64,000 nt of DNA from Promethearchaeota archaeon Loki_b31 (GTDB taxonomy: Archaea > Asgardarchaeota > Lokiarchaeia > Sigyniarchaeales > SOKP01): positions 32,001 through 96,000 of the forward strand of contig NJBI01000003.1 of NCBI GenBank assembly GCA_005222975.1, written 5' to 3'. Numbering within the stretch: position 1 is the stretch's first letter; each line of letters begins with the position of its first letter. This document shows, one piece after another, positions 36,522 through 59,436 of this stretch. The notes beneath the pieces are model-generated. The model was not told where the DNA came from. It saw only the letters and a list, made by a program, of their open reading frames with translations, and did no database searches. Position numbers and translations under genes: made by a program.

Positions 36522-36615
36522 CAATATAAATGTAAATTTTTAATATATTTTTTTGATTTTTTAATTTAAAATAAAATAAAATGAATTTGAATATCCAAAT
36601 TGCTGGTGAAAAGAT

Positions 36616-37479
36616 ATAAAAAGTAAGAATTTTAAAATTTTTGACGCTCATCTTCATACCTATGGCACATTTCTACCTAAAAATGAAGATTTAATTAGTT
36701 ATCTGGAAAAATATAACATCGAAAAAGCAATTATTACTACAGTTAATAGAGCAGCAAGCTCTAAAATCTATGTTAATAAAGATAACACTGAAGAAAATAA
36801 CACTTCTAACAATAATATCGTAAAGAGAGCGTTTGAAAACTTAAGGAAGTTAACAAAAGGTCAATTGGACCATCAAGATGTTATTAACATATCAAACAAA
36901 GATCCCGAAAGATTTTACAAATTCTTCTGGTTCAACCCAAAAATCAAGCCTGAGGATGAGGACAGCGATTACAAAGTCTTAGAAAATCATTTTGACTTAG
37001 GTTTTTGTGGGGTTAAGATCCATTCCGGTATTCACTTAATAAATATTCCAAGAGACATCATAAAACTAGTTTCTTTTATGCAAGATTATAACAAAAAATT
37101 TCCGTTATTCATTCACTTTACACCAAAATTTTCTGCTTTTGGAGGGATAAGTAGTAAAGATATATCAAAATTAGCAAAAAATTATCCAAATTTGCGTATC
37201 ATTATTGGACATGCTGCGTTGGCGATGGAGTTTGCGATAGATCTTGGATTGAGCTTAAAACAATATAAAAATGTATTTTTTGAAACTTCTTGTTCTATAC
37301 CTTACGGGATACTAAGTTTGATAAAAATAGTAGGGCATAAACGTGTTTTATTTGGAACAGATTCGCCAGTCACTAATCCAATAAAACTTGAAATTGATAA
37401 AATATTATGCTTACCAATTACCGATGATCAAAAACGTGATGTTTTTTTCAACAACATTGACAGCATAATTAGAAATTAA
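36616..37479 (+). CDS. Amidohydrolase_2 family protein; N-terminus extends upstream of the ORF-track start (probable ATA start)
   Basis: Frame is open from 36610 and encodes IFDAHLH (metal HxH) about 75 codons before 36865; also GVKIH, IH, GHA, FGTDSP. Confidence 0.85.
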   Translation: MKSKNFKIFDAHLHTYGTFLPKNEDLISYLEKYNIEKAIITTVNRAASSKIYVNKDNTEENNTSNNNIVKRAFENLRKLTKGQLDHQDVINISNKDPERFYKFFWFNPKIKPEDEDSDYKVLENHFDLGFCGVKIHSGIHLINIPRDIIKLVSFMQDYNKKFPLFIHFTPKFSAFGGISSKDISKLAKNYPNLRIIIGHAALAMEFAIDLGLSLKQYKNVFFETSCSIPYGILSLIKIVGHKRVLFGTDSPVTNPIKLEIDKILCLPITDDQKRDVFFNNIDSIIRN

Positions 37480-37700
37480 ACCATTATTTTTCAAAGGTTT
37501 TAAATTTTTTTAGATTATCTTTCAAATCTTCCACTAACATTTTATCAATATTAACTAATTAATTAATTTTGACTTTAAAATTATTGTCGAGAAAATTATT
37601 ATAGATTAAGGCGATTATTTCTGTTTTAATAATAGAATATATAAACGTAGTTGTGTAATTTTTTATTATAATCTTGTAAAAATTTATTCGAGTTGATACA

Positions 37701-38246
37701 GTGAAAAATTTAGGGGATGATAATTACTACAAAGAGAACAATAATTGGGATGTCATAGAAGTTTCAAAGGTTAACGACAAAATTATTAAAAAGCTTTTAA
37801 ATTATCTGAAATATGATATATCAGAAAACTTCTTTATTTCCTTTGAAAGCCTTTTAAAATTAGGAAATAAGGTTCCAGAAGCTACAATTCAAAATATTAT
37901 CAATGAGTTAGACCAAACTCACAATTTCAAAAAGGATTTGTTTCGCTTTATTTTAAGCTTTGTAAAAAATGGTACGGTAGAATTTCACTTATTACCTCAA
38001 ATATATAGCCCAGATTTCATCGTTAGGGCTCGAGCCATAATGAAAATAAAACAAAACAACGATACAAGATATCTAAAGTTCCTACTCCCGTTATTAGACG
38101 ACCCTGACGATTCCGTAAGATGGAGCGTGATAAAATTTTTGGCTAAGCATAAAAATAATCCAATAATCTTTAATGAATTAAAAAATCACTTGAATAAGGA
38201 GTTAAATCCTATAATTTATAGTAATTTGAAGGAAATATTTGAATGA
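37701..38246 (+). CDS. HEAT-repeat protein
   Basis: SPDFIVRARAI, LLDDPDDSVRWSVIKFL. Confidence 0.8.
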   Translation: MKNLGDDNYYKENNNWDVIEVSKVNDKIIKKLLNYLKYDISENFFISFESLLKLGNKVPEATIQNIINELDQTHNFKKDLFRFILSFVKNGTVEFHLLPQIYSPDFIVRARAIMKIKQNNDTRYLKFLLPLLDDPDDSVRWSVIKFLAKHKNNPIIFNELKNHLNKELNPIIYSNLKEIFE

Positions 38247-38546
38247 AAGCATAAAATTAGAGAATAAAGAATAAGAGAACATAAAAAATACAACTTAGAA
38301 TTACATCTATTTTTAAATATCTTGGTGCTCTTTAACTTTTTTATTTAGAAATTCACTGCTAAATTTTGTTAGTTCAAGACTTATCTTATTTAATAAAAAA
38401 GTAAAGAATTAAAAAAGACATTTTTAATTATATATATATCTGAAATTAAGACCCAAAATTTAAAATTTCGATAAAATCTTAGTTGTATAACATTTTATTT
38501 ATCAAACTTGAGGTATTAAATAAATTTCTAAAAAAGGTGTTATGTA

Positions 38547-39077
38547 ATTCCATCATATGATTTTACTTTCAAAATCTTGCTTTTAGGCGATGCATCTGTA
38601 GGAAAAACATCGTTTACTAAACGATTTTGCTATAATCTCTTCAATCCCTCAGAAAGGCTAACAATTGGCGTAGACTTCCATGTTAAGACAATTAATATAC
38701 ATGGTAAAAAGATAAAATTGCAAATCTGGGATGTTGGAGGGGAAGAGCGCTTCAGATTCTTATTACCCACTTATTGTCTCGGTGCTAATGCGGCATTTTT
38801 GCTTTATGATGTTACCAGATCTCAGACCTTAGACAATATTACTGAATGGACCAATATCGTTCGCCAAAAGGGTGGCCCTATTCCAATCATGCTCGTAGGC
38901 GCGAAAATCGACTTAGGAGACGCTCAACGTGAAGTTCTTCGAGAGTACGGAATTCAAGTAGCTGAAAAAAATAACATGGCTTCTTTTGGCGAAATATCGA
39001 GTAAATCAGGTCAAAATGTAGACAAAACCTTTGAAGTTCTCACAGAGCTTACATTAGATAAAATTGAAAATAGGTGA
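38547..39077 (+). CDS. Rab-like small GTPase (probable ATT start)
   Basis: YDFTFKILLLGDASVGKTS, TIGVDF, KLQIWDVGGEERFR, LLYDVT, GAKID, ISSK; no C-terminal Cys motif. Confidence 0.92.
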   Translation: MPSYDFTFKILLLGDASVGKTSFTKRFCYNLFNPSERLTIGVDFHVKTINIHGKKIKLQIWDVGGEERFRFLLPTYCLGANAAFLLYDVTRSQTLDNITEWTNIVRQKGGPIPIMLVGAKIDLGDAQREVLREYGIQVAEKNNMASFGEISSKSGQNVDKTFEVLTELTLDKIENR

Positions 39078-39081
39078 TTAA

Positions 39082-40044
39082 ATGGTCGAACGTGAATTTT
39101 TGACTCTTAACTCTTTATTTGATTCTATAGGACTTATCGAAAAAGGTATTGAAAAAGTTTATCACTATTTATTACAACACCAGAAAATTGATAATTTAAA
39201 GGAAGTCAGTACGGAATTTAATCTTACATTGAAAAGAGGCTATAAAATTTGTGCCGTTTTAAACGACTTAGGATTAGTTCAAATTTACGATAGACCAATG
39301 AAAATACATTTATCTACTCCACCTGTGGCGATTTGGCAAAGAATTATAAACGAGCGTATTGTGGAGTTATCACAGCTTTTTCAAGAAAAAAAAGAGGACG
39401 CGGAAAACGCGTTAAAAGAATTCATAAAAACTTATAACTTTATCGAACAAATAACTCAAGAATTCGTAGAGTTTATTAGTTACGACCTAACCAACTTCGA
39501 TGAAACATATCATTCATTTCTAGCAGAAAAAGAATGTAAAATAGCCTTAGGAATAAGATATGAAAATGATTTAACTTCAATTATAAAAAAATATGGAATT
39601 TCGAATATTCCAGAGGATTTAAATAAATCCATGAGAGCTGGGATGATTAAAATTAAAGAAAATCTAATAAATATCAATATTCAAGTTATATTTAGTACCG
39701 AGTTGATTAATGAATTATTATCAAACGAGGAATTTAACCTTATTTCAAAATACATTGATTTATATGATTTAGAATTTAAAAGTATTGATGTACATGTCAC
39801 TGACGAAGTTTTTAGTAATTTTAGTTTAACTGATAATGAATTAATTCAACCCAGTTTTGATCCAACTAATAAATTGTTTGGATCTTTTATCTCGCGAAAT
39901 GCGAATATTTACCAAATTTTTTACGATAAATTTAATGAATTGTACGAAAAAGGAATTCCCTTGGTTCAATTTTTAAAAGAGCATAAATACATTACGATTG
40001 ATTCTTTTTCTGAGAGCCAACTGTTTGGATTATGTTTGTTATAA
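39082..40044 (+). CDS. TrmB-like transcriptional regulator
   Basis: N-terminal LFDSIGL...EKVYHYLL...GYKICAVLNDLGLV wHTH, then a coiled coil and a C-terminal effector-like domain ending FYDKFNELY. Confidence 0.7.
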   Translation: MVEREFLTLNSLFDSIGLIEKGIEKVYHYLLQHQKIDNLKEVSTEFNLTLKRGYKICAVLNDLGLVQIYDRPMKIHLSTPPVAIWQRIINERIVELSQLFQEKKEDAENALKEFIKTYNFIEQITQEFVEFISYDLTNFDETYHSFLAEKECKIALGIRYENDLTSIIKKYGISNIPEDLNKSMRAGMIKIKENLININIQVIFSTELINELLSNEEFNLISKYIDLYDLEFKSIDVHVTDEVFSNFSLTDNELIQPSFDPTNKLFGSFISRNANIYQIFYDKFNELYEKGIPLVQFLKEHKYITIDSFSESQLFGLCLL

Positions 40045-40207
40045 AAAAACAAAAACAGTATCAAAGGTAATTATATAAATTTAATTTATTTAGATAATAA
40101 TTTTATAAATTAAACTCTAAATTGTTGTTTTGAATTAATAAGAAAAATTTTTTAAATTTCTAAGACAATTTAGTGGTAACTATTGATTTTTTCAATTTCA
40201 AGAAGAA

Positions 40208-41194
40208 ATGAAAAACTTCTTATCGCCAGATAAAATTTATTCTAACGTGGAAAATGGAAAATTTAGTAAAGCTATAGCTGCTGAGCTGTTGATCTCATTA
40301 ATCGAAGGAAGCGATAACCCAACAACTCGTGCTGAATCAATTAAAATTTCTGAGAAATTGAAAATTCACGATCAAAAAATCTTTAAAATCTTACAAAATT
40401 CTCTATTATCCGACGAGAGCCCATTAGTTAGGAAATCAGCTGCGAAATTCATTGGACAAATTTTTTTAAAAAAAGGTTTAAACACGCTAATATGGGTTGT
40501 ACAGCACGATAAATCTCCACGAGTTCTAAAAGCTATTTCTGATTTGAATAGCAGACTTAATAAAGCCCGATTTAAGTCGTTAAGTAAAGAAATAAATATG
40601 TATTTGGCAGAAGTAGCGTTATCCGTTGGTATAGTTCAAAATGAAGCAAAATTTATATTAGATTTGGAGGCTTTATTTGCTCAAAACGAAACTGATTATG
40701 AGCTTGAGTTAAAAACTTATCAATTCTACAAAAAATTAAAAGATAATAAACTTGGAGAATCTTGGCTTACGATAAGGAATAAACGCATTGAATCCTTGAG
40801 TTTCAATTATTATAATTGGAAATATTTGAAAGAAATCCCTAGTATGTTTAGCTCAATTTCTAAATTGCAAGATCCCCTGGTTTATTTAAATTACTTAGGA
40901 AAGATTGGTCTTAAAAGCAATAAAATTCTCAAAATACCCGACTCACTAGCGTTACTCACAAATCTTAAAAAATTGAATATTAGTAGAAATAATATTAAGG
41001 AATTTCCAAAATCAATTTTATCACTTTCTTATCTTAAGTATTTAGACATAAGTCATAATAAAATTTCTGATATACCTGTGGAAATTAAAGATTTAAACTC
41101 ATTGGATGTTCTGAGAATTCACCATAATAAATTTCGAAATATCCCAAATTACTTAAGAGAATTCTTGCTTACACTTCAAGATTTTAAAATTTAA
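40208..41194 (+). CDS. HEAT + leucine-rich-repeat protein
   Basis: LLSDESPLVRKSAA HEAT repeat; four LxxLxLxxNxI repeats at the C-terminus. Confidence 0.85.
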   Translation: MKNFLSPDKIYSNVENGKFSKAIAAELLISLIEGSDNPTTRAESIKISEKLKIHDQKIFKILQNSLLSDESPLVRKSAAKFIGQIFLKKGLNTLIWVVQHDKSPRVLKAISDLNSRLNKARFKSLSKEINMYLAEVALSVGIVQNEAKFILDLEALFAQNETDYELELKTYQFYKKLKDNKLGESWLTIRNKRIESLSFNYYNWKYLKEIPSMFSSISKLQDPLVYLNYLGKIGLKSNKILKIPDSLALLTNLKKLNISRNNIKEFPKSILSLSYLKYLDISHNKISDIPVEIKDLNSLDVLRIHHNKFRNIPNYLREFLLTLQDFKI

Positions 41195-41281
41195 ATATTT
41201 CTACACTTTTATCTGAGATAATTATTTAAGGAATAAAATAGAAAGTAAAATAAAAATAAATTTAGAATTATGGTGTGAAAT

Positions 41282-42994
41282 TTGGAAGAAAAGAAAAAAG
41301 TATTGAATGGTGGCGATGTTCTAATAAAATGTTTACTCGAAGAAGACATTAAATATCTGTTTGGAATTATTGGTGGGCAATTCTTAAATATGTTTGATGC
41401 AATTTACAGATGGGGTAAAGAGAAGGGCATTGAAACCGTGATGTTTAGACATGAACAGGCTGCTGCCCATGCAGCCGATGCTTGGGCAAGAGTAACTAAT
41501 AAACCAGGAATCTGTTTTGGAACAGTTGGTCCGGGCGCAACTCAACTCGTTCCGGGTGTTGGTGCGGCATGGAGCGATAATATGCCTATGATTGTAATTG
41601 TACCTCAAGTAAATAGTAAATTTGCAGATTCCTTCACTTTACAAGGAAACCTCGACCAAATTACAATGTTCAAACCGATTACTAAATACCAAAAAAGTAT
41701 TAGAACAATTGAAGAAATTCCTAACGCCGTCCAAAAATGTTTTAGAGAAGCTACAAGTGGTCGTCCAAGACCTGTCTTATTGGAAATATACGAAGATGCT
41801 TTTCTTGCTGAGGCTGAAGAAGACAAAATTTCTATTCTCACTTCAAATAAATACAGGGCTCTTGTGAAACCTGCTGTTGATAATGCATTAATTAAAGAAT
41901 CGTTGGAATTACTATTAAAAGCAGAAAAACCTTTAATTGTTGCTGGAGGGGGTGTTTCTCGAGCAGAAGGAGGGAACGAGCTTCAAGAATTTGCTGAGTA
42001 TTTAAAAATCCCTACGCTAACATCTATTATGGGTATGGGTACTATTTCAAGCGATTCAAAATCTTTTGTCGGATCAACTATAGCTGGTGCTGGTTTAAAA
42101 GCAGCCGCAGAAGCAGATGTAGTTTTAGTTCTTGGTTGTAAATTTACTCATATTATGGCCCATGGTCAGGAACCATTTTGGAAGGATTCACAAAAAATGA
42201 TCCAAGTCGATATCGATCCAACCATTATAGGTCGAGCTAAACCAATTACTTTAGGTATTATAGGAGATTGCAAGCAATTTTTAAAACAGATCCTTGAAGA
42301 AGCAAAGAAAGCGCAAAAAATTGAACAAAGAGATTGGTTGGAAGAAATGGTCAAAGCAAGAGAAAATTACATAACGACTATGATAAAAAAGGCATCGAAA
42401 GATAAAATACCAATTGTTCCTCAACGATTAATAAAAGATGTTTTAGAAAGTATAGATGACGATGCAATTTTAGTTTTAGATGGCGGAGATATTGTATGCT
42501 ACGCTATGGAACAAATAGATATTCACAAACCAAGGCCTCCACTTTCTACTGTAGAAGCAGTCGGTATGGGCCATTTAGGTACTGGAATTCCTTACGGTAT
42601 TGGTGCTAAATTAGCAAAGCCTGATAAACAAGTTGTAGCAATAACTGGAGACGGATCATTTATGATGAACATTCAGGATCTTGAAACAGCCGCTAGATTG
42701 GGATTAAAAAACCTAATATACATAGTTGCCAATAACAGTGCGTGGGGCATGCTTAAATCAGGGCAAAAGCTCTTCGTAGGTAAGCGTTATATCGATGTGG
42801 AACTCCCACCTTTTGACTACGCTAAATGTGCCGAAGGATTTGGTTGTTATGGAGAAGTAGTTACCGATCCTAACGAGATTAAACCCGCCTTCGAGAGAGC
42901 AAAAAACTCGGGGAAACCTGCTGTAATAGATATAAAGATAGCTTGGAGTATTCCCGATTCAACTAAGCTTTTAGGTAGTATGGGAATTTTATAA
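41282..42994 (+). CDS. Thiamine-diphosphate enzyme, acetolactate synthase / 2-hydroxyacyl-CoA lyase family
   Basis: RHEQAA, GPGAT, SGRPRPV, GDGSF...NN. Confidence 0.92.
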   Translation: MEEKKKVLNGGDVLIKCLLEEDIKYLFGIIGGQFLNMFDAIYRWGKEKGIETVMFRHEQAAAHAADAWARVTNKPGICFGTVGPGATQLVPGVGAAWSDNMPMIVIVPQVNSKFADSFTLQGNLDQITMFKPITKYQKSIRTIEEIPNAVQKCFREATSGRPRPVLLEIYEDAFLAEAEEDKISILTSNKYRALVKPAVDNALIKESLELLLKAEKPLIVAGGGVSRAEGGNELQEFAEYLKIPTLTSIMGMGTISSDSKSFVGSTIAGAGLKAAAEADVVLVLGCKFTHIMAHGQEPFWKDSQKMIQVDIDPTIIGRAKPITLGIIGDCKQFLKQILEEAKKAQKIEQRDWLEEMVKARENYITTMIKKASKDKIPIVPQRLIKDVLESIDDDAILVLDGGDIVCYAMEQIDIHKPRPPLSTVEAVGMGHLGTGIPYGIGAKLAKPDKQVVAITGDGSFMMNIQDLETAARLGLKNLIYIVANNSAWGMLKSGQKLFVGKRYIDVELPPFDYAKCAEGFGCYGEVVTDPNEIKPAFERAKNSGKPAVIDIKIAWSIPDSTKLLGSMGIL

Positions 42995-43050
42995 CCAATA
43001 AAAATATATTCTATTTTTTTTTAAATTATAATTAATAGAGTGTGAGATAT

Positions 43051-44070
43051 ATGAAAGGAGCAGTATTTGTAGGAAAACATCAAATTGAAATAAGAGACGA
43101 TATACCTAAACCAGAGGTTCTTTCTGACGAGGTATTAATAAAGGTAAAATATTGCGGTATATGTGGTTCTGGAATTGAATCTTACGAATCTGGGGGGATG
43201 TATTTGCCTGGAATCGTTATTGGTCACGAGTTTTCGGGAGAAATCGTGGAAATAGGCGATAATGTAAGAAAAAGGAAAATAGGTGATCGAGTAACGGTAA
43301 ATCCTAATGTTCCGTGCCACGATTGTTATTGGTGCAACCATTACCAAGAAAATATGTGCAAATTAAGTAATAATGGTTTAGGTACGACTCAAAATGGTGG
43401 AATGGCAGAATTCATAAACTTAAAGGCGGAGCGGTTACACGCCTTACCAGACTCAATGTCGTTCAAAGCAGGAGCTACAGTAGAACCATTAGCAAACTGT
43501 GTGTACGCAGTTCAACAATCGGGTTTAAAAATTGGTGATAGCGTTGCAGTTATTGGAGCGGGAACAATAGGATTAATGACGATTCAAACGCTAAAAGTTG
43601 CCGGTGCTGGTAGTATTTACGTAATAGAACCCGTTGAATCAAAACAAAAAAAAGCGCTTGAAGTAGGTGCAGAAAAGGCGTTAAAACCAAACGCTTGGAA
43701 TAAGATCGTTAGATTAACTAATAAAATTGGACCTGATCACGTTTTTGATTGTGTAGGGCTTCCAGAAACTTATATGACATCAATGAATTTAGTTAAAAGA
43801 GGAGGCCAAATAACACTTATTGGAATACATGTAGAATCTTTCGAAATGAAAGGGTTTATGCAGCTAATGCTCAAAAACATTTCAATGAAAGGAGTGTTTA
43901 GTTTTAACCAAGAAGTTTTCGCAACCTCGTTAAATTTAATCGCTGAAAGTAAAGTAAATGTAGACCCAATAATTACAAAAACGATAAAAATAGACGAAGT
44001 ACCCGCAATGTTTAAAACATTAGCTAATCCGCCACATGAAGAGATAAAAGTACTTGTAGAGTTCGATTAA
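43051..44070 (+). CDS. Zn-dependent alcohol/polyol dehydrogenase (MDR family)
   Basis: GICGS, GHEFSG, structural CxxCxxC...C, GAGTIG. Confidence 0.92.
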   Translation: MKGAVFVGKHQIEIRDDIPKPEVLSDEVLIKVKYCGICGSGIESYESGGMYLPGIVIGHEFSGEIVEIGDNVRKRKIGDRVTVNPNVPCHDCYWCNHYQENMCKLSNNGLGTTQNGGMAEFINLKAERLHALPDSMSFKAGATVEPLANCVYAVQQSGLKIGDSVAVIGAGTIGLMTIQTLKVAGAGSIYVIEPVESKQKKALEVGAEKALKPNAWNKIVRLTNKIGPDHVFDCVGLPETYMTSMNLVKRGGQITLIGIHVESFEMKGFMQLMLKNISMKGVFSFNQEVFATSLNLIAESKVNVDPIITKTIKIDEVPAMFKTLANPPHEEIKVLVEFD

Positions 44071-44164
44071 TTTTTAATTAATTATTATTTTTCCTATTTT
44101 TTTAGTTATTATTTTCAATCGAGCTATAGAAAAATTTTATAAATTCCCAAAATAATAATAACGA

Positions 44165-44204
44165 TACTTATTGATTTAGGAAATATCAAATCAATATGTA
44201 AGTA
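44165..44204 (+). promoter_or_regulatory. Inverted repeat upstream of the fatty-acid-CoA ligase gene (operator or 5'-UTR hairpin)
   Basis: TATTGATTT-N10-AAATCAATA (44169-44196), extendable by TACTTA/TAAGTA, about 25 nt downstream of a GAAAAA-TTTTATAAA BRE/TATA. Confidence 0.45.
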
Positions 44205-44227
44205 AAAAAAAAAGGTGTTAAATAAAA

Positions 44228-45960: not shown

Positions 45961-46051
45961 TTAAAACTTTTTTTTTCTATTTTTATAAAATTATTTTAAG
46001 GACTTCATCAAATACTAAATATAGTTATAAAATTATTTCTAACTCAAAGAG

Positions 46052-47344: not shown

Positions 47345-47519
47345 TGTTTTTATTGATTGAATTTCTTTAAAAATAATTTTATTCTTCTCTTCTTTTTTTT
47401 CTTTTGGCTAAGATTAAACTTAGATTACTTCTAAATTCAAGTTGTAAACAATTATAAATGAAAAAATCTAACTCTATATATTATAAGTTTATTCAAATTA
47501 ATCATTTTGAGAATTTTAA

Positions 47520-48341: not shown

Positions 48342-48386
48342 TAATTAAAGTCATAAAAATTGTTTTTACTAAGTTAGATTTGGACT

Positions 48387-49907: not shown

Positions 49908-50029
49908 TTATATATCAATAATTTAATTTTTTATAATCTCGAAATTCTTATAAAATGTGGTTGCTATTTAATATATTTATAAAGACCAATTAATAATTAT
50001 TATAAAAATCGGAGATGTGAAATATAGAA

Positions 50030-51715
50030 TTGACAGATGCCAATGAGAGTAATACACGTTTTATATTCATTACGGGAGGTGTAATGTCTGGTATTGGTAA
50101 GGGAGTTGTTACCGCTAGTATAGGAAAGGTGCTCCAATTCCGGGGGTTCAATATTTCGGTGGTTAAGATCGACCCTTACCTAAATGTTGATCCAGGAACG
50201 CTTAATCCAATTGAACACGGTGAATGTTTTATTACAGAAGATGTATGGGACTTTACACCTGTGCCAGAGTCAGACGAAAGATGTTATAAAATTTCTGAGA
50301 TAGATCAGGACTTCGGGACTTACAGCAGATTTTTGGGTATCGAGATGCATCCTTCACATAATATAACTTCTGGCCAGATCTATTTATCAACTATCTTAAG
50401 AGAAAGAAAAGGTAAATTCTTAGGAAAAACTGTACAATTAATCCCTCATGTGACTAGTATTATAAAGAAAAGATTAATGGAAATTTCAGAAAGTGAGAAT
50501 TTAGATGTATTATTAATAGAATGCGGCGGAACTGTAGGTGATTTAGAATCAAGTATCTTTTTGGAAGCTTTTCGACAAATTAAATTGGAGTACCCTCATC
50601 GTACGGCTTTAGTTCATGTAACTCTTGTTCCTTATTCTCGGGCAGTTGGTCAACAAAAATCAAAACCAACGCAACATTCTGTTAAAATGCTTCAAAGCGT
50701 GGGATTACAACCAGACATAATAATAGGTCGGACTGAAAAACCTTTAGCTGACGATATAAAATCGAAAATCTCCCTTTACTCAAACATTCCAGAAGACGCA
50801 GTAATTTCAAATCCTGATTTAGATGTCGTATACGAATTACCTTTATTATTTGAGGAACAAGGATTAGGGGATTTTCTTTGTGAACTTATAGATTTAAAAG
50901 CAAAACTGGTTTCGAAACCAGTTTATTCCGAATGGGTAAAAATGGTAGAATTATACAAAAACGCTAGTAAAACAGTAAGAATTGCGATGCCTGGCAAATA
51001 TTTTAACATATCTGATTCGTATATTTCCATCAACAACGCCTTAGAACACGCAGCGGCTCACCAAGGGTATAGGACTGAATTGAAAATGATAAATATTACC
51101 GAAGACACCAATATTGAAGAAGTATTAAGAGATTGTGATGGTATACTATTAACACCTGGTTTTGGAGAGAGGGCTGTTGAAGGGATGATTAAATCGGCGG
51201 AATATGCTATGGAAAAGAAAGTACCATTTTTAGGTATTTGTTTTGGTGCTCAGTTGTTTTACATTGCCTTCTGTAGAAAATATTTAAGATTAACTGGAGC
51301 AAACTCCTCTGAAATAGTTCCTGATACGCCATATCCTGTGGTTGATCTTTTAGAAAGCCAGAAAGACGTGACTGAGAAAGGAGGAAGTATGAGATTAGGT
51401 TCTCATAAAATAATTGTTGAGAAGAATACTAAACTCTTTAACGCTTATAACCAAAAAGAAATTAAAGAAAGGTTTAGGCATAGATATCATATTCAAGAAA
51501 GATTTATTACAGAAGAAGCCAAACTAAAAGGAATGATTGTATCAAGTAGAGATGAAACCGGGAAAATAATAAATAGCATTGAATTAAATCGAGACGACCA
51601 TTGGATGGTTGGAACTCAATTTCACCCCGAATTTAAATCAAGACCATACGCTCCTAGTAAGTTATATTTTGATTTTATAAAAGCGTGTGTTGCTAAAAAA
51701 GCTGGAAATAAGTAA
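50030..51715 (+). CDS. pyrG: CTP synthase
   Basis: TGGVMSGIGKG, KIDPYLNVDPGT, GGTVGD, KSKPTQHS, GICFG, RHRY, QFHPE. Confidence 0.97.
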   Translation: MTDANESNTRFIFITGGVMSGIGKGVVTASIGKVLQFRGFNISVVKIDPYLNVDPGTLNPIEHGECFITEDVWDFTPVPESDERCYKISEIDQDFGTYSRFLGIEMHPSHNITSGQIYLSTILRERKGKFLGKTVQLIPHVTSIIKKRLMEISESENLDVLLIECGGTVGDLESSIFLEAFRQIKLEYPHRTALVHVTLVPYSRAVGQQKSKPTQHSVKMLQSVGLQPDIIIGRTEKPLADDIKSKISLYSNIPEDAVISNPDLDVVYELPLLFEEQGLGDFLCELIDLKAKLVSKPVYSEWVKMVELYKNASKTVRIAMPGKYFNISDSYISINNALEHAAAHQGYRTELKMINITEDTNIEEVLRDCDGILLTPGFGERAVEGMIKSAEYAMEKKVPFLGICFGAQLFYIAFCRKYLRLTGANSSEIVPDTPYPVVDLLESQKDVTEKGGSMRLGSHKIIVEKNTKLFNAYNQKEIKERFRHRYHIQERFITEEAKLKGMIVSSRDETGKIINSIELNRDDHWMVGTQFHPEFKSRPYAPSKLYFDFIKACVAKKAGNK

Positions 51716-51721
51716 AGCACT

Positions 51722-51913
51722 ATGATAGAAAAGAAATCAATTGATTACTGTTACCTTATAAGGAGCGGCCAATCATGCATAAAAGCACAAATATCAAAAA
51801 AATACTTACCTTATTACGAATGCGAATTATGTATATGGCGTATTCGGTCTGATAACCCACGTCATTTAAAAAGTCTTCAAAGAATTTATGAAAAATATAA
51901 TCCTAATCTCTAA
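51722..51913 (+). CDS. Small Cys-rich hypothetical protein (63 aa)
   Basis: ATG 6 nt after the pyrG stop; C10, C19, C34xxC37. Confidence 0.55.
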   Translation: MIEKKSIDYCYLIRSGQSCIKAQISKKYLPYYECELCIWRIRSDNPRHLKSLQRIYEKYNPNL

Positions 51914-52127
51914 TTAATTTTTCTTGTAGTATCAACTAAATTTCTATAAACATATTCTCTAAAAGCCAGTTTTTTTAAAGAACATTTTTGTCTTAACCTA
52001 GAGGCGAAAAAAAGTTATTAATTATTTACCAAGCAGTTTTTATTTAACAGCTTAATAAATATTCTTAAAAGAAATTAATAGCTATTTTTAATTTAAGGAT
52101 ATAAAATAAGAAGAATATATTTGTACA

Positions 52128-53273
52128 ATGCTTTATAAGAAAGAAAGACCCGCAATTTTAATGCTTAAAGATGGTCGGTATTTTCAAGGAATTGGGTTTG
52201 GTGCGACAAAAACAATTTATGGCGAAATTGTATTTAATACTATAACGGGGGCAGGCTATAATGAGACTTTAACGGACCCCTCTTATAAAGGACAAATCGT
52301 TGTAATGACACACCCACTTGTTGGAAATTACGGAGTTCCAGCCTGGGAAAAAGACGAATGTGGCATTAACAAATATTTTGAATCAGATTCAATTAAAGTA
52401 AGTGGATTCGTTGTAAACGAGTGTTGTAAAAATCCGAGCCATTACGAAAGCGTAAAGACCTTAAACGAATTTCTTTTAGAGGAAGATGTTCCTGGAATAG
52501 AATGGATAGATACTAGAGCGATAACTAAAATCTTAAGAGAAGAAGGTGTTCAAGTTGGATTACTTGCGGTGTTTAATCCGGGTGAAAAACCCAAAATTGA
52601 TGAGTTAAAAATAAAAGCCAAAAATGTGGCCGATCCGAATCTTAGACATTTAGCAAGCGAAGTTTCGACTAAAGAAGTCAAGAAATTTACCCCTCCTAAT
52701 CCGAAAGGAAAAGTAATTGTAATTGATTTGGGAGTAAAACATAACATTCTTAGAAATTTAGTTAAAAGGAAAATAGAAGTAATTTTAGTTCCATATAACT
52801 ATTCTTACGATCAAATTATGAGCTATAAACCAAATGGCGTACTCATATCCAACGGGCCAGGAGATCCAGCCATGTGCAAGAAAGCAATTGAAGTCGCTCG
52901 TAATTTAATCAAAAATAATATTCCAACAATGGGCATATGCTTGGGGAATCAAATAATTGGTATAGCTGCCGGCGGATATTCTTATAAGTTAAAATACGGT
53001 CATAGAGGTGGAAACAAAACTGTTATTAATCCAATAACTAAGCAATGTTATATTACATCTCAAAATCATGGGTTTTGCGTAAAAGACTTTGAAAAGGGAG
53101 GTTTTAGCGAATTTCTTACTAACATAGATGATAAATCAAATGAGGGTATAATTCACGATAGTAAACCCATTTTTGCCGTTCAATTTCACCCTGAAGCCTG
53201 TCCAGGACCCTTAGATTCGTTGTATCTATTTGATAAATTTATCGAACAAATGGAGTTAAGATTATGCCATTAG
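52128..53273 (+). CDS. carA: Carbamoyl-phosphate synthase small subunit
   Basis: GEIVFNT, LTDPSY, SNGPGDP, GICLG, TSQNHGF, QFHPEA. Confidence 0.97.
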   Translation: MLYKKERPAILMLKDGRYFQGIGFGATKTIYGEIVFNTITGAGYNETLTDPSYKGQIVVMTHPLVGNYGVPAWEKDECGINKYFESDSIKVSGFVVNECCKNPSHYESVKTLNEFLLEEDVPGIEWIDTRAITKILREEGVQVGLLAVFNPGEKPKIDELKIKAKNVADPNLRHLASEVSTKEVKKFTPPNPKGKVIVIDLGVKHNILRNLVKRKIEVILVPYNYSYDQIMSYKPNGVLISNGPGDPAMCKKAIEVARNLIKNNIPTMGICLGNQIIGIAAGGYSYKLKYGHRGGNKTVINPITKQCYITSQNHGFCVKDFEKGGFSEFLTNIDDKSNEGIIHDSKPIFAVQFHPEACPGPLDSLYLFDKFIEQMELRLCH

Positions 53274-56200
53274 ATAAATCGATAAAAAAAGTTTTAATTT
53301 TAGGCTCTGGGGGCATCCGAATTGGGCAAGCTGGAGAATTTGATTACTCCGGAAGTCAGGTTTTAAAAGCATTAAAAGAAGAAGGTATAGAAACAATATT
53401 AATTAATCCGAATATTGCTACTATTCAAACTGACCCTACATTATCTGATAGAGTATATTTACTTCCCATTAACGTAAAATATGTTGAGGAAGTAATAAAA
53501 AAAGAGAAACCAGATGGTATTTTACTGGCATTTGGAGGTCAAACAGCTCTAAATGTCGGTGTGGAGTTAAAAGAACTTGGCATTTTGGAAAAATATAACA
53601 TAAGAGTCCTTGGAACTCCTATAGAGGCAATTGAGGTCACTGAAGATCGGGAATTATTCGTAAAGGCTATGAATGAAGCAGATGCAAAAGTGTGTCAAAG
53701 TAAAGCAGTAACATCATATAAAAAGGCGATTGAAGTAGCTCAAGAATTTGGTTTTCCTTTAATGCTCCGAGTAGCTTATACTTTAGGAGGTAGAGGTTCA
53801 GGTATCATTGATAATATGAAAGATTTCGAAAGAATGGCAAAAAAAGGGTTAGCCCAATCGAGGATTAATCAAATCTTAATCGAGGAATCCGTATGGGGTT
53901 GGAAAGAAGTTGAATACGAAGTGGTACGAGATTCTGCGGATAATTGCTTTATAAACTGTAACATGGAAAATTTCGATCCTGTGGGAATTCATACAGGAGA
54001 GAGTATAGTGGTAGCACCGAGTCAAACATTAACTAACGAAGAATACCACATGCTTCGGTCTGCTTCAATTCGAGTTATTAGGGGTCTTGGGATCATCGGC
54101 GAATGCAACATTCAATACGCATTAAATCCTTTTTCAAAAGAATTTCGAGTTATTGAAGTCAATGCTCGCCTTTCGAGATCTTCTGCGTTGGCCTCAAAAG
54201 CTACTGGGTACCCTTTAGCGTACATAGCTGCCAAATTAGCGATAGGATATACCTTACCAGAGCTTAAAAATAAAATAACGGGTATAACAACCGCTTGTTT
54301 TGAGCCCGCATTAGATTATTTAGTTCTAAAAATTCCACGATGGGATTTGACTAAATTTCAAAAAGTTGATAGACGCATTGGCTCTCAAATGAAAAGTGTA
54401 GGGGAGGTTATGGCAATAGGAAGAACATTTGAGGAAGTTCTTCAGAAAGCTATAAGGATGCTGGATATTGGAATGAAAGGATTAGTAGCAAATAATTTAG
54501 AACCAATTGAAGATGTCAATGAATTAAAATATACTTTAAGAAATCCTACGGATTTACGGCTATTTAGAATCGCTGAAGCAATTAAAATAGGAATTTCAAT
54601 CGATGAAATTTATCGTTTATCAAGAGTAGATAAATGGTTTTTGTATAAATTAAAAAATATAATAGATCTTAACCGTCAAATCCAGGATATTGAATTGCTC
54701 GAATCAGATGATAATGAGAAAAAATATTGGTTAGAGCGCGCTAAAAGATTCGGCTTTTCAGATGGTCAAATTGCTAAGATTATGGGCGTTGATACAATAT
54801 TCATCCGACAAATGAGAAGAAGACTAAATATTCATCCGTATGTTAAAAGAATTGATACCTTAGCCGCCGAATGGCCCGCAGTGACTAATTATCTATATTT
54901 AACATACAGCGCATCGGAGCACGATATTAATTTTGAAAAAGAACATAATTCTAATCTTAAAAAAGTTATTGTATTGGGCTCGGGGACATATCGTATTGGC
55001 GCTTCTGTAGAATTTGATTGGGGCTCGGTCAATTGCTTATGGGGATTAAAGAAGTTGGGAATCGACCAAGCAATAATGATTAATTATAACCCTGAAACAG
55101 TATCAACTGATTACGATATTTCAGATAAGCTTTATTTTGAGGAATTATCCGGAGAAAGAGTGTTAGATATCTGCGAACTCGAGAAAGCAGACGGTATCGT
55201 AGTATCCGCAGGGGGACAAATAGCTCAAAACTTAGCTTCAAAATTTTCTAAATATTCTGAAATCTTTCGTAAAACAGGTATAAATATCTTGGGAACTCAT
55301 GGAACCCGAATCGATATGGCGGAAAATAGGAGCAAATTCAGCACCTTATTAGATCAATTAAATATAAAGCAACCTGAATGGAATGCATTGACAACAAACG
55401 AAGGAGCCATCGCTTTTGCGCAGAAAGTGGGGTATCCGGTACTCGTTAGACCTTCATATGTATTAAGTGGTGCAGCTATGAGAGTTTCTTACGATGAAAA
55501 TACGCTAAAAGATACTCTTGATCTCGCCGTATCCGTATCAAGTGAATACCCCGTTGTCATAACTAAATTCTTTACAAATGCTAGGGAAATAGAGTGTGAT
55601 GGTGTATGCGATGGTGAAAATGTATTTATCGGTGCTATTGTAGAACACATCGAGAATGCAGGAATCCATAGTGGAGATGCTACCATGACAATCCCTCCTC
55701 AAACAGTTTCCAATGAGGTTATTTCAAAAATTGAAAATTATACGAATAAAATTGCCTTAGCATTAAAAATTCACGGTCCTTTTAATGTTCAATATCTCGT
55801 TAAAAATAGCGAAGTTTACGTAATTGAATGCAATTTAAGATCTAGTAGAAGTATGCCCTATGTTTCGAAATCTCGAGGCATAAATTTAATGAGACTTGCA
55901 GCTGAAGTTATAATGGGAGAAAAGATTCCAAAAAGATTAATGAAACTTCCTATTGGAGATTATGTATCAATAAAAGCTCCCATGTTTTCTTTCATGAGAC
56001 TTGATAAAGCAGATCCGATACTTGGAGTTGAAATGGCGAGTACGGGAGAGATCGGTGTAATTGCAGATGATTTTCCAGATGCCTTAATTAAAGCTCTTGA
56101 AGCAACGGAACAAATAATACCTATAGAAGGGGGAAACATTCTAATTTCAGTTGGTGGAAACAAACTCAAGAAAGAAATTATTCCCTTAGCCAAAAAAATA

Positions 56201-56575
56201 AAAGATTTAGGTTTTACGATTTTTGCTACAGAGGACACGAAAAAAGCTTTAAACAAAAATGATATTAAAGCTGTGAGACTTTATAAGGTCCATGAGCATG
56301 GATTGGAGCCTAATATCATGCAATGTCTGCAAGATGGGCGTATTGATATGGTCATAAACATTCCTTTACCAACTACAATCGAGGAGAAATTTAAAACCAT
56401 TATGGAAGACGAATATAAAATTAGACGCATGGCAGTAGACTACAATATTCCTGTAATAATTAATTTACAGCTAGCAAAAGCAGTTATCGACGCTATTAAA
56501 AACATGCGTGAAAAGAAAATTGAAATAAAGTCGCTTAACGAGTATCATCAAACGCTAAAAGAAGTGTATTGGTAA
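53264..56575 (+). CDS. carB: Carbamoyl-phosphate synthase large subunit
   Basis: IGQAGEFDYSG, duplicated ATP-grasp domains, VNARLSRSSALASKATG, C-terminal MGS domain. Confidence 0.98.
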   Translation: MPLDKSIKKVLILGSGGIRIGQAGEFDYSGSQVLKALKEEGIETILINPNIATIQTDPTLSDRVYLLPINVKYVEEVIKKEKPDGILLAFGGQTALNVGVELKELGILEKYNIRVLGTPIEAIEVTEDRELFVKAMNEADAKVCQSKAVTSYKKAIEVAQEFGFPLMLRVAYTLGGRGSGIIDNMKDFERMAKKGLAQSRINQILIEESVWGWKEVEYEVVRDSADNCFINCNMENFDPVGIHTGESIVVAPSQTLTNEEYHMLRSASIRVIRGLGIIGECNIQYALNPFSKEFRVIEVNARLSRSSALASKATGYPLAYIAAKLAIGYTLPELKNKITGITTACFEPALDYLVLKIPRWDLTKFQKVDRRIGSQMKSVGEVMAIGRTFEEVLQKAIRMLDIGMKGLVANNLEPIEDVNELKYTLRNPTDLRLFRIAEAIKIGISIDEIYRLSRVDKWFLYKLKNIIDLNRQIQDIELLESDDNEKKYWLERAKRFGFSDGQIAKIMGVDTIFIRQMRRRLNIHPYVKRIDTLAAEWPAVTNYLYLTYSASEHDINFEKEHNSNLKKVIVLGSGTYRIGASVEFDWGSVNCLWGLKKLGIDQAIMINYNPETVSTDYDISDKLYFEELSGERVLDICELEKADGIVVSAGGQIAQNLASKFSKYSEIFRKTGINILGTHGTRIDMAENRSKFSTLLDQLNIKQPEWNALTTNEGAIAFAQKVGYPVLVRPSYVLSGAAMRVSYDENTLKDTLDLAVSVSSEYPVVITKFFTNAREIECDGVCDGENVFIGAIVEHIENAGIHSGDATMTIPPQTVSNEVISKIENYTNKIALALKIHGPFNVQYLVKNSEVYVIECNLRSSRSMPYVSKSRGINLMRLAAEVIMGEKIPKRLMKLPIGDYVSIKAPMFSFMRLDKADPILGVEMASTGEIGVIADDFPDALIKALEATEQIIPIEGGNILISVGGNKLKKEIIPLAKKIKDLGFTIFATEDTKKALNKNDIKAVRLYKVHEHGLEPNIMQCLQDGRIDMVINIPLPTTIEEKFKTIMEDEYKIRRMAVDYNIPVIINLQLAKAVIDAIKNMREKKIEIKSLNEYHQTLKEVYW

Positions 56576-56602
56576 AATAAAAAAATCTAATTATTTGAAT
56601 CG

Positions 56603-57088
56603 TTAATTTAGCGATTTTATTCTAAAATCTGTTTTAAATTTTTTAATTAAAATTTTTAAAATTTCTTCTTTTGATTTCATTTTACCGTCATAAAAAATTT
56701 TGAACATTTTTTGTTGCGGATAGTATTCTATAGGATACTTAGAGCGATTGATATCGAAATAGAGCTCTAAATCTTCATAAATTCTTTTTATTATATATGT
56801 CCGATTTTCTATAGGTATTGGATTTAAAATTTCGAATTCTAAATCTTTTTTCTTTATAAGATTCTCTAAAAAATGTTTTTCTTTCCTACTTAACCTTATT
56901 GACCTAAATTTCCAAAAATGCCCTATAGTCCACCAGCTAAAAGTATAAAGCAAAATAATCCATAAAGAAGTAATATAAGCAGTTATTGGTGCACCCAAAT
57001 TGAATAAGATCCAGTTAAATACGCCAAGGAAGAATCCACTAAAAACATAAGCTTTTATCGTCCACCATTTTTTCGACCTTTCCATCAA
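56603..57088 (-). CDS. Hypothetical membrane protein (2 N-terminal TMs)
   Basis: Two hydrophobic segments then a basic soluble domain; no motif recognised. Confidence 0.6.
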   Translation of the reverse strand: MMERSKKWWTIKAYVFSGFFLGVFNWILFNLGAPITAYITSLWIILLYTFSWWTIGHFWKFRSIRLSRKEKHFLENLIKKKDLEFEILNPIPIENRTYIIKRIYEDLELYFDINRSKYPIEYYPQQKMFKIFYDGKMKSKEEILKILIKKFKTDFRIKSLN

Positions 57089-57401
57089 CGAGTTCCCTCT
57101 ATTTGTCGTTCTATATATTTCAAATTTAAGTTTAAATTTATTCCTTGCTTTTTAAATAATATTATATCGGTTTTCTAATATTTATTAGTAAACCAAACTA
57201 TTTATTTGTTTACCAAAAAAGAAACTTAAGGGTCTTTTTTTCATTTCGATTTTGGGTATTTGATAATTGGTGATAAAAGTATCTTATTTTATTGGATATG
57301 TTCTTTGAATAAGGCTTTGTCACGATCTTCATTCATTAAATTGTCAAATTGATAAGAAAAATAAAAATTTTTATTTTTTTTTTCTTAGCATTTTTTTAAA
57401 T

Positions 57402-57416
57402 CGAAATCTTTTTAAG
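57402..57416 (+). promoter_or_regulatory. Archaeal BRE-TATA promoter for the putative ncRNA
   Basis: CGAAA-TC-TTTTTAAG; no + strand CDS follows. Confidence 0.55.
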
Positions 57417-57434
57417 GTTATGGTTTATTCTATG

Positions 57435-57812
57435 TGTTAGTTATTCAAAGTCATTCAAGCTAACAAATAATTTTGGTACGCCCCAGGTGTGGCAGATACC
57501 TCTGAAAAACATTGGCAGGACGGCGACAGAATGGACACCCTCCCATATCTTAAAACACTAGGCCATCGCTTTAGCGAGGAGCTTATAAATAAAAATTAGG
57601 GCACGACCCAGAGAGGCCGTCTAGTGGCTTTATAACTGATTCCATTTATATAATGGAATTTTTCGAAACATTGGCGCATGAGGGTAAGGATAAGGTAAAT
57701 TTCAAACTAGGATTTACGGATGTAGCGGTAGCTATCAATTTTTTGAGGTTACAGCTCGTTTCAATCTAAGAAAAAAAGTTTAGTGATTAGAAGCGAACTT
57801 TAGTTCGCAAGG
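57435..57812 (+). ncRNA. Unidentified structured ncRNA (about 380 nt)
   Basis: GC-elevated ORF-free segment with about ten nested or serial stems. G-U pairs work on the + strand only. Promoter upstream, hairpin plus T17 downstream. Confidence 0.65.
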
Positions 57813-57830
57813 ATTTTTTTTTTTTTTTTT
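57793..57830 (+). terminator. Hairpin plus oligo-T terminator
   Basis: GCGAAC-TTTA-GTTCGC followed by 17 T (57814-57830). Confidence 0.65.
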
Positions 57831-58857
57831 ATTGTTTTGACTTATTTAATTTAATCAAAATAAACGGCACCAGATACGATAGAATGAACCCAATTATAGC
57901 ATATCTTATATATCTGTAGAAAACTGAATCAAATACGCCTCTAAAAGCTTCAAGAGCAAAGTAAACTACAAAAATAATAACTAAACCGATTATTAAATTT
58001 ATAATCTTCCATTTTAAAGTTAATTTACTCGGTTCGTAATTAATGTACTCATTCTCAAGTACATATCCGATTCCAAGTCCTAACATTACTCCACAAACCT
58101 GAGCAAATCTACCTGTATCGGTAAAAGCAGGAGGTGTTGGAAGAAGGTTCAGATAGGATGTGGGAAATAAAAGTATCCCCAATAAAAAGAGAAATAAAGA
58201 GGTTATAATAACTATTATCAATTTCACTGGTAGATTTAATTTATTGAATTGTTTCGATCCATAAGGCTCTAAATTAATAAATAACACTAAAATTCCTAAT
58301 CCTATTAAAAATCCACCAATAACATCTTCAAGGTCATGCACGCCTATAATCATTCTTGATATTGCAATTAGGAAAATGAGGATCCCCATAACTATAACGA
58401 AATAAAGCTTTTCTCGAAATTCATATGCGATATAGCCCCATGTTGCTACAGCAGATTGAGTATGTGCTGAAGGAAAACCGTAGGAAGTTTCTATTAATCC
58501 ATCAGGGTTTTCTGGTGTGATTTCTCCAGGATCAGTATTAGATAATGGTCGTGGATCCTGGAAAATATTCTTTAGGAATTCATTCAAATAGACAGTATAT
58601 AATAAGCTCAATGCTAGATTTTTCGCAAATCGCTTATCATAGACGATAAAGAAAATTGCCACCATTACTATGAATACAATTGGGTCTCCAAGAAAAGTAA
58701 TTACTTTGAAAATAGAACGTACCGTAGAGGATTCACTATAAAACGCTTCATTGAAACCCAAAGCAAGAAATATAATTCCTATAATTAACACTGCAATAAA
58801 GATTACTCCAATAGTTATTAATTGTCTCTTACTTAGAATTTTATTACTTTCAGACAT
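57829..58857 (-). CDS. PAP2-family membrane phosphatase
   Basis: KNIFQDPRP, GFPSAH, SRMIIGVHDLEDV. Confidence 0.92.
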   Translation of the reverse strand: MSESNKILSKRQLITIGVIFIAVLIIGIIFLALGFNEAFYSESSTVRSIFKVITFLGDPIVFIVMVAIFFIVYDKRFAKNLALSLLYTVYLNEFLKNIFQDPRPLSNTDPGEITPENPDGLIETSYGFPSAHTQSAVATWGYIAYEFREKLYFVIVMGILIFLIAISRMIIGVHDLEDVIGGFLIGLGILVLFINLEPYGSKQFNKLNLPVKLIIVIITSLFLFLLGILLFPTSYLNLLPTPPAFTDTGRFAQVCGVMLGLGIGYVLENEYINYEPSKLTLKWKIINLIIGLVIIFVVYFALEAFRGVFDSVFYRYIRYAIIGFILSYLVPFILIKLNKSKQ

Positions 58858-59154
58858 AATTAATACCTTAATTTACATTGGTAAAATTAAATTGTTATAA
58901 GGATTAATAAATGTTTTGCAAAATAGATGAATAAAACAGAAAAAAAAGCTAAAACAATTATTAATAGTTGGATTTTAATCGTTATTATATTTTGCCAACA
59001 TTGAATTTTGTGTCCAATTCAAAATTTCTGCTTAAAATAAAAAACATTTTTATCGTTAATAGAAAGTTTGAAAAAGATTGAAAAATTAATAAAATTTTGC
59101 GTAAGTTAACGGTTTAAATATGAAGTAAAACAAAAACTATCAGGTGTCAGGCTA

Positions 59155-59436
59155 ATTTACTATCGTGGATACATCTTAATTCGCTTGAAAATTATTGGAA
59201 CGCAGTGGAAGATCGTAGAAAAATTAAATAATTTACAACCCAGAAAAGGTGAAGATTGGAGGATTACTTACGCATCCCCTACTTATGGCGGTTGGGATTT
59301 AATTGTAGAATGTATTTTTAATAATTTAGAAGATTTGGATAAAATCGTGTCCTTCTGTCGAACTGATGAAGATTTAAAAGAGTGGATCGATGCTACAACA
59401 ACTCTGATCAGCACAAAAAGAAATTTTGAAGAATAG
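59155..59436 (+). CDS. Small Lrp/AsnC ligand-binding-like (ferredoxin-fold) protein; probable ATT start
   Basis: YYRGYILIRL first strand lies upstream of the ORF-track TTG; TYGGWDLIVE, LEDLDKIV, TTTLI. Confidence 0.7.
   Translation: MYYRGYILIRLKIIGTQWKIVEKLNNLQPRKGEDWRITYASPTYGGWDLIVECIFNNLEDLDKIVSFCRTDEDLKEWIDATTTLISTKRNFEE

Follow-up and report, generated by a model that had tools for sequence, protein, structure and literature searches.

The 64,000-nucleotide stretch of the uncultured Promethearchaeota archaeon Loki_b31 analyzed here (the window; G000:C78:32001–96000 in our numbering) belongs to a metagenome-assembled genome (MAG) of 3.52 Mb in 99 contigs with 31.5% GC. It contains three genes, encoding an amidohydrolase, a Rab-like small GTPase and a small conserved protein, that have no in-frame canonical start codon (ATG, GTG or TTG) between the upstream stop codon and the conserved N-terminal residues. 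At the position where a start would be expected, each has an ATA or ATT codon behind a GGTG-type Shine–Dalgarno (SD) motif. We refer to any non-NTG start as near-cognate and to ATA, ATT and ATC collectively as ATH; spacers are nucleotides counted from the last G of GGTG to the start codon.

Three genes with ATA or ATT at the start position

An SD model for the source genome was trained on 1356–1660 open reading frames (ORFs) with the first ATG no more than 10 codons from the upstream stop. The words enriched upstream of these unambiguous ATG starts were pieces of GGAGGTGAT, and the ATG-start spacer peaked at 7–8 nt (main peak at 7) with a range of 5–11. When the window was scanned with the 5-mer SD rule, exactly three sites were returned. 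All coordinates that the original prediction had given for the ATA and the two ATT codons, behind GGTG-type SDs and upstream of the canonical codons, were confirmed. The spacers at the three sites are 7, 7 and 8 nt, the spacing used by the ATG starts of the genome. The features are as follows:

36605–36609, forward strand: SD motif GGTGA of the amidohydrolase gene, matching the GGAGGTGAT-type SD; kept in five close orthologues and also seen in many more distant relatives
36616–37479, forward strand: amidohydrolase (PF04909) coding sequence; proposed ATA start at 36616–36618, spacer 7, stop codon at 37477–37479
38535–38539, forward strand: SD motif AGGTG of the Rab gene; GGTG block kept in most genus orthologues, flanks variable
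38542–38547, forward strand: out-of-frame ATG-TAA mini-ORF, 2 nt past the SD; the final A of its TAA doubles as the A of the ATT
38547–39077, forward strand: Rab/Ras-family small GTPase coding sequence; proposed ATT start at 38547–38549, spacer 7, stop codon at 39075–39077
59142–59146, forward strand: SD motif AGGTG of the small-protein gene; (G)GGTG is the sole invariant upstream stretch in 18 orthologues
59155–59436, forward strand: coding sequence of a small conserved protein of 93 aa; proposed ATT start at 59155–59157, spacer 8, stop codon at 59434–59436

The head of the amidohydrolase ORF is bounded by an in-frame TGA (36607–36609) that lies within the SD itself. GGTGA is followed by AAA GAT and then by the ATA at 36616–36618, which would give KSKNFKIFDAHLH as the N-terminus. 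The protein matches Pfam Amidohydrolase_2 (PF04909; E = 2.1e-13, 51.1 bits versus a 26.4-bit cut-off), and the next canonical codon lies 83 codons on, past the FDAHLH motif that contains the HxH metal motif. D-A-H-L-H is conserved in 46 of 47 related Promethearchaeota loci. Among 17 genus orthologues (here and below, from independent MAGs with 63–96% protein identity), eight have ATA at spacer 7 and six have ATG, with three unclear. The relatives with ATG read M-I-S-R-N-D-F-K, and their ATG is on or adjoining the codon that is ATH elsewhere. ATH at spacer 7 is also seen in many of the 47 Promethearchaeota loci, which extend to 50% identity, and in two distant ones (L072 and L074) a TAA stands immediately 5′ of the ATC or ATT.

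The open frame of the Rab gene starts at 38532, and the ATT at 38547–38549 is followed by PSYDFTFKILLLGD. The protein has a full G domain, with the P-loop GxxxxGK[ST] present as GDASVGKT, and the Pfam Ras match (PF00071; E = 1.4e-43) covers profile positions 1–158 of 162. Profile position 1 corresponds to residue 14 of the open frame, two residues before the first canonical codon, TTG 38577, which lies 10 codons from the proposed start and within strand β1 of the Ras domain. In the orthologues, the start column holds ATT (5), ATA (1), ATG (5) or GTG (1), mostly 6–7 nt behind a GGTG-type motif, and the ATT of L007 and L012 has an in-frame TAA 1–2 codons to its 5′ side. The downstream TTG is shifted or absent among orthologues. 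After the start column, variability at codon positions 1, 2 and 3 is 0.15, 0.07 and 0.30. The alignment of orthologues thus bore out the expectation that ATT and ATA would align with ATG, as ATH shares its column with ATG or GTG.

The third gene is strictly conserved at this position. The ATT at 59155 is followed by YYRGYILIRL, and no canonical codon occurs before a TTG 10 codons on, the position of which is not conserved among orthologues. The start column of 18 genus orthologues contains 17 ATT and one ATC. In five genomes, a TAG directly adjoins the ATT on its 5′ side, and hence no other start is available there. YYRGY is invariant, with codons that differ synonymously, and variability after the ATT is 0.13, 0.00 and 0.34 at codon positions 1, 2 and 3. 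In both the Rab and the small-protein genes, the coding signature therefore appears right behind the ATH, and upstream of it the SD block alone is invariant. The description of this third protein as Lrp-like was not established: the Pfam AsnC_trans_reg match (PF01037, the Lrp/AsnC RAM domain) is sub-threshold (E = 0.028, 14.7 bits versus a 25-bit cut-off), and a PDB sequence search returned stand-alone AsnC-like chains only at E of about 0.6, so that the assignment remains a guess.

These data bear directly on the possibility that translation starts at the next canonical codon (TTG 38577 in the Rab gene, the TTG 10 codons on in the small-protein gene and the canonical codon 83 codons on in the amidohydrolase gene), with the stretch upstream as an untranslated leader. 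Standard gene finders do call such starts, 48 of the best 120 public amidohydrolase-family calls begin internally and a TTG is present 10 codons on in two of the genes. Yet the stretch that would be skipped is conserved as protein, with variability at third positions, and it holds the HxH metal motif in one gene and, in another, the start of Ras strand β1 ahead of the P-loop. The TTGs move or vanish in orthologues and lack an SD, whereas the SD before the ATH is conserved. We consider a downstream start very unlikely.

Single-base errors were raised as a caveat in the original prediction; as a rival explanation, a base missing or added in sequencing or assembly could hide an ordinary ATG (38542) or GTG (36606 and 59144) start. 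Each site does have an out-of-frame ATG or GTG a few bases away, since the ATG-TAA at 38542–38547 and the GTGs at 36606 and 59144 are real, and site 1 has a run of five A. However, MAGs obtained independently in different studies show the identical ATT or ATA in the identical frame, and the frame is unaltered even in L015 and L075, where other bases interrupt the A-run (ATA GAA AGT). The out-of-frame codons lie within the SD or follow it by 2 nt, a spacing unused by the genome, and are not conserved in other orthologues. The caveat was accordingly rejected, and errors of this kind are an extremely improbable explanation.

A recoding device was also considered, in which a short out-of-frame ORF (ATG-TAA or GTG...TAA) is translated and followed by a programmed frameshift or by termination–reinitiation at the overlapping TAA and ATT. 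The source genome has a short out-of-frame NTG...TAA ORF at all three sites, and at sites 2 and 3 this ORF ends on a TAA that overlaps with the ATT. The shift needed would be unequal, however (+1 at site 1 and −1 at sites 2 and 3), and the mini-ORFs are absent from most orthologues that keep the SD and ATH. Their NTG, inside the SD or 2 nt past it, is also too near for SD-led initiation. At the Rab gene, the ATG-TAA mini-ORF is found only in the source genome and its two nearest relatives (L002 and L003); since it is missing from the other orthologues, the Rab start does not require it. Recoding thus appears to be a highly unlikely account. The mini-ORF at 38542–38547, itself non-conserved, might modulate initiation.

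On the basis of the orthologue columns and the coding signature, sequencing error, a downstream start and a conserved frameshift or reinitiation device were excluded. Judged from these comparisons, the three genes are very probably intact and translated from near-cognate starts, ATA for the amidohydrolase and ATT for the Rab protein and the small protein, through a property of the organism that is not peculiar to these three genes.

Near-cognate codons behind SD motifs across the genome

The genome-wide scan for SD plus ATH codons was performed on 3803 stop-to-stop ORFs of at least 100 codons, using the 42,499 head codons that lie at least four codons upstream of the first canonical codon. A 5-mer SD at a spacer of 6–9 precedes 251 of these (0.6%). 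All 61 sense codons were tested against the composition of the ORF heads. The five most enriched were ATA (26 versus 11.2 expected), ATT (29 versus 15.0), ACG (7 versus 1.5), ATC (13 versus 4.6) and CTG (4 versus 0.8), all of which are single-mismatch neighbours of AUG. ATH codons together amounted to 68 versus 30.8 expected (2.2-fold, p = 2e-10). Control spacers of 13–20 were flat, and the ATH share reached 41% at spacer 7 and 27% at spacer 8, versus a background of 12%. Random sequencing mistakes cannot yield such codon-specific enrichment at a fixed SD spacing.

The excess corresponds to about 46 genes with near-cognate starts, compared to 225 canonical first-in-head starts with the same SD. 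This puts near-cognate starts at no less than about 1.3% of genes, and at about 17% of the starts with a strong SD; how many there are in all depends on the number of such starts with weaker SDs. Repeating the enrichment test with 4-mer SDs was too noisy because of many chance matches inside ORF heads, and only ATC, CTG and ATT were up, weakly.

Pfam domains were scanned in 20 candidates, of which 18 had a match. In at least 11 of these 18 further candidates, the domain begins 5′ of the first canonical codon, as judged by a match that opens, 1–40 residues after the proposed start, at or close to position 1 of the profile. The domain-supported genes encode ribosomal protein uS8, AcnX, a galactarate/altronate dehydratase (GD_AH), an IF-2B-like protein, AAA_5, aldehyde:ferredoxin oxidoreductase (AOR; ACG), V-ATPase subunit C (ACG), an XRE helix-turn-helix protein (HTH_3; CTG), a RagA-like GTPase whose P-loop would otherwise be lost, a dCTP-deaminase-like protein (DCD-like) and an ABC-2 permease (ABC2). 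Comparison with five genomes from four other families is in agreement: uS4 starts there with ATG-GGx-GAT-CC (M-G-D-P), versus ATC-GGx-GAT-CC in the source genome, and uS8 and the IF-2B-like gene start with ATG or GTG at or near the position of its ATA. The proposal that SD-guided ATT/ATA initiation is a habit of the lineage, made from three genes, is thus upheld by orthologue columns, stops before the ATH, genome-wide enrichment and Pfam domains in at least 11 genes.

The genome-wide set also bears on recoding by coupling to an upstream gene. An upstream ORF ends no more than 20 nt away for 16% of near-cognate candidates versus 46% of ATG starts with an SD, a comparison that is only indicative because the near-cognate set contains background. 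Translational coupling was rejected as an explanation on these figures.

Near-cognate candidates include uS4 (ATC; G000:C17:20004–20504, reverse strand), uS8 (ATA; C59:20103–20483, forward strand) and V-type ATPase subunits C (ACG; C13:24960–26018, forward strand) and D (ATT; C13:30670–31305, forward strand). With uS4, uS8 and V-ATPase C and D among the candidates, highly expressed housekeeping genes are also affected. In the window, the ORF head of CTP synthase (50024–50032, forward strand) reads ATA GAA TTG behind GGAG/GTGA, and its start could be either ATA 50024 or TTG 50030.

aIF1, the initiator tRNA and the reach of the probable near-cognate starts

The gene for initiation factor aIF1 (SUI1; G000:C88:29424–29774, reverse strand, outside the window; compared over loci L097–L179) has no ATG, GTG or TTG 5′ of its zinc knuckle. 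In family f1, that of the source genome, the sequence runs GGTTGTGA, 9–10 nt, ATT (ATC in one genus) and AAA GAC..., with a TGA or TAA 2–3 codons 5′ of the ATT. Elsewhere, the aIF1 start is ATA (f5, f7 and f2-g5) or TTG (f2-g2, represented by G026, and f6). The mRNA of aIF1 itself thus carries a weak, evolutionarily conserved start signal, the feature expected of autoregulation of the IF3/eIF1 type. The suggestion that the unusual starts could be regulatory has indirect support at most: the ATT is strictly conserved in the small protein and aIF1, but the Rab and amidohydrolase genes exchange the near-cognate codon freely with ATG.

ARAGORN searches of the MAG, whether or not introns were allowed, yielded just 14 tRNAs, none of them a tRNA-Met, and missed the initiator tRNA. 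The latter was located by a regular expression for the anticodon arm (G000:C55, about 287–393, reverse strand). Its anticodon is CAU, the anticodon stem is closed by three G:C pairs, an A1:U72 pair is present and an intron of about 28–30 nt interrupts the T-loop. As this tRNA looks canonical, an altered anticodon does not explain the relaxed codon usage.

To place the habit more widely, the 61-codon test was applied to 1.6 Mb (G026:C1:1–1600000; loci L198–L277) of G026, a genome from another family of the same order assembled as a single 4.36-Mb contig. Its SD profile is of the GGTG type, the same as in the source genome, 98 canonical SD-led starts were found in the same test and its aIF1 starts with TTG.

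Several results weigh against near-cognate initiation as a clean and general rule. In G026, ATH codons numbered 13 versus 7.9 expected (p = 0.047), a marginal signal, and the habit is not claimed for the whole order for this reason. About 45% of the SD-plus-ATH candidates across the source genome equal the expected background, so that single candidates lacking an orthologue or Pfam check are uncertain. Three amidohydrolase orthologues depart from the pattern: L020 (identical to L056) has TTA at spacer 7 with no NTG or ATH option there, and in L022 and L023 an ATC or ATT stands at spacer 4, with GTA at spacer 7. In all three, neither an NTG nor a spacer-7 ATH is present between the in-frame TGA of the SD and FDAHLH. 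Because of them the SD-plus-ATH rule is not perfectly clean; either spacing is more flexible or still weaker codons are in use. The spacing of the aIF1 SD is sub-optimal, at 10 nt from GTGA. The anti-SD is only deduced, as the 16S rRNA, including its 3′ end, was not found in the MAG, and the stringency of start selection is likewise read from codon usage. Taken together, the near-cognate habit is strong in the source family and not uniform across the order. The weak signal in G026 goes with an aIF1 that starts with TTG instead of ATT, which is suggestive.

We propose that normal SD/anti-SD pairing 7–8 nt upstream would set the near-cognate codon in the P site, where the canonical initiator tRNA would presumably read it as methionine by way of a mismatch at the third position. 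In this way ATT, ATA and ATC, and less often ACG and CTG, would be the start codons of some 45 genes or more. The likeliest cause would be weak discrimination against near-cognate codons in the source lineage, such that AT-biased mutation may turn ATG into ATA or ATT at little cost where the SD is strong; this low cost would account for the free exchange of ATG and ATH in the Rab and amidohydrolase genes. Elsewhere, as in the small-protein and aIF1 genes and few others, selection may keep the weak codon. That aIF1, the factor expected to police start codons, itself appears to start with ATT suggests a feedback loop of the type known from IF3 in bacteria (AUU) or from eIF1 in eukaryotes (poor context). 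Decoding by Met-tRNAi, relaxed stringency and aIF1 feedback are all inferred. It is conceivable, if on balance doubtful, that stringency is constitutively relaxed in one Lokiarchaeia family, with up to about a sixth of SD-led genes on AUH, ACG or CTG, those for ribosomal proteins and ATP-synthase subunits among them, and with the extent set by aIF1–AUU feedback. If so, lineages would differ in how strong the habit is according to the start codon of aIF1 (ATT here, where it is strong, and TTG in G026, where it is weak).

Annotation of Promethearchaeota proteins and comparison with known systems

Gene finders that consider only ATG, GTG and TTG shorten or miss proteins with near-cognate starts. 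Among the best 120 public amidohydrolase-family calls, 72 are at least 275 aa long and carry the N-terminal D-x-H-x-H, and the other 48 (40%) are 206–269 aa long, have internal TTG, ATG or GTG starts and lack the motif; the predicted truncation of annotations is thus seen in the public record. The closest relatives of the amidohydrolase (90–94% identity) are called at 258 and 209 aa. Asgard proteins such as small GTPases, actin, tubulin and ESCRT components are widely used in structural and evolutionary work on eukaryogenesis, and loss of a first β-strand can spoil expression or folding. For Promethearchaeota genomes, start models need to be lineage-specific and to allow ATH, ACG and CTG.

Exactly this truncation problem was met in work on the tubulin AtubA from an Asgard (Kariarchaeaceae) MAG, the Methods of which remark on a ‘rare ATT start codon’ with a plausible ribosome-binding site (PMC13394414). 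As in our genes, the deposited protein was too short, an ATT lay upstream at ribosome-binding-site distance and the extension completed the fold. AtubA, however, is a single gene from another Asgard lineage that was treated as an oddity, without genome-wide or comparative analysis. Apart from this remark, the open-access papers and preprints searched contained no systematic report of near-cognate starts in Asgard archaea. Near-cognate initiation is well known for single genes. A 2020 review noted that SDs were apparently not prevalent in the first Loki genome (PMC7531240). In Haloferax volcanii, initiation-site ribosome profiling placed about 30% of putative alternative sites at near-cognate codons, which the authors put aside as possible false positives (PMC7261190). 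Those were alternative sites, whereas the codons described here would be the sole starts of conserved main ORFs; Haloferax, moreover, is mostly leaderless.

Routine near-cognate starts of main ORFs would be unusual for any prokaryote. The use of the degenerate triplets AUU and AUA as bacterial start codons has been studied (PMC5499595), and infC of Escherichia coli, which encodes IF3, has an AUU start and is under translational autocontrol (Butler et al. 1987; Sacerdot et al. 1996; both cited in PMC3326321). The present system resembles infC in two respects, in that a near-cognate AUH at normal SD spacing is proposed to be read by the initiator tRNA and in that the gene of a fidelity factor, here aIF1 with ATT, carries the weak codon. 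It differs in that bacteria use such starts in a handful of genes, compared to dozens here, including those for ribosomal proteins and ATP-synthase subunits. The machinery is of the archaeal/eukaryotic type (aIF1/aIF2) rather than based on IF3, and autocontrol, established for infC, is only inferred here.

In eukaryotes, eIF1 is autoregulated via an AUG in poor context, and initiation at CUG and AUU is tuned by the levels of eIF1 and eIF5 (PMC3326321; reviewed in PMC4705826). aIF1 is the homologue of eIF1, and a weak signal on its own mRNA together with widespread near-cognate starts fits the same stringency logic. Eukaryotic ribosomes scan and use the Kozak context, whereas the SD would position the codon here, and eukaryotic non-AUG starts of main ORFs, unlike those described above, are rare and mostly give N-terminal extensions or belong to upstream ORFs. 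The host archaeon combines eukaryote-type initiation factors with SD-guided start selection, and an aIF1 on ATT gives a link, open to test, from the IF3 loop of bacteria to the eIF1 loop of eukaryotes. Should aIF1 feedback prove real, the ‘stringency thermostat’ represented by IF3 on AUU and by eIF1 in poor context would be a feature of the archaeal relatives of eukaryotes as well.

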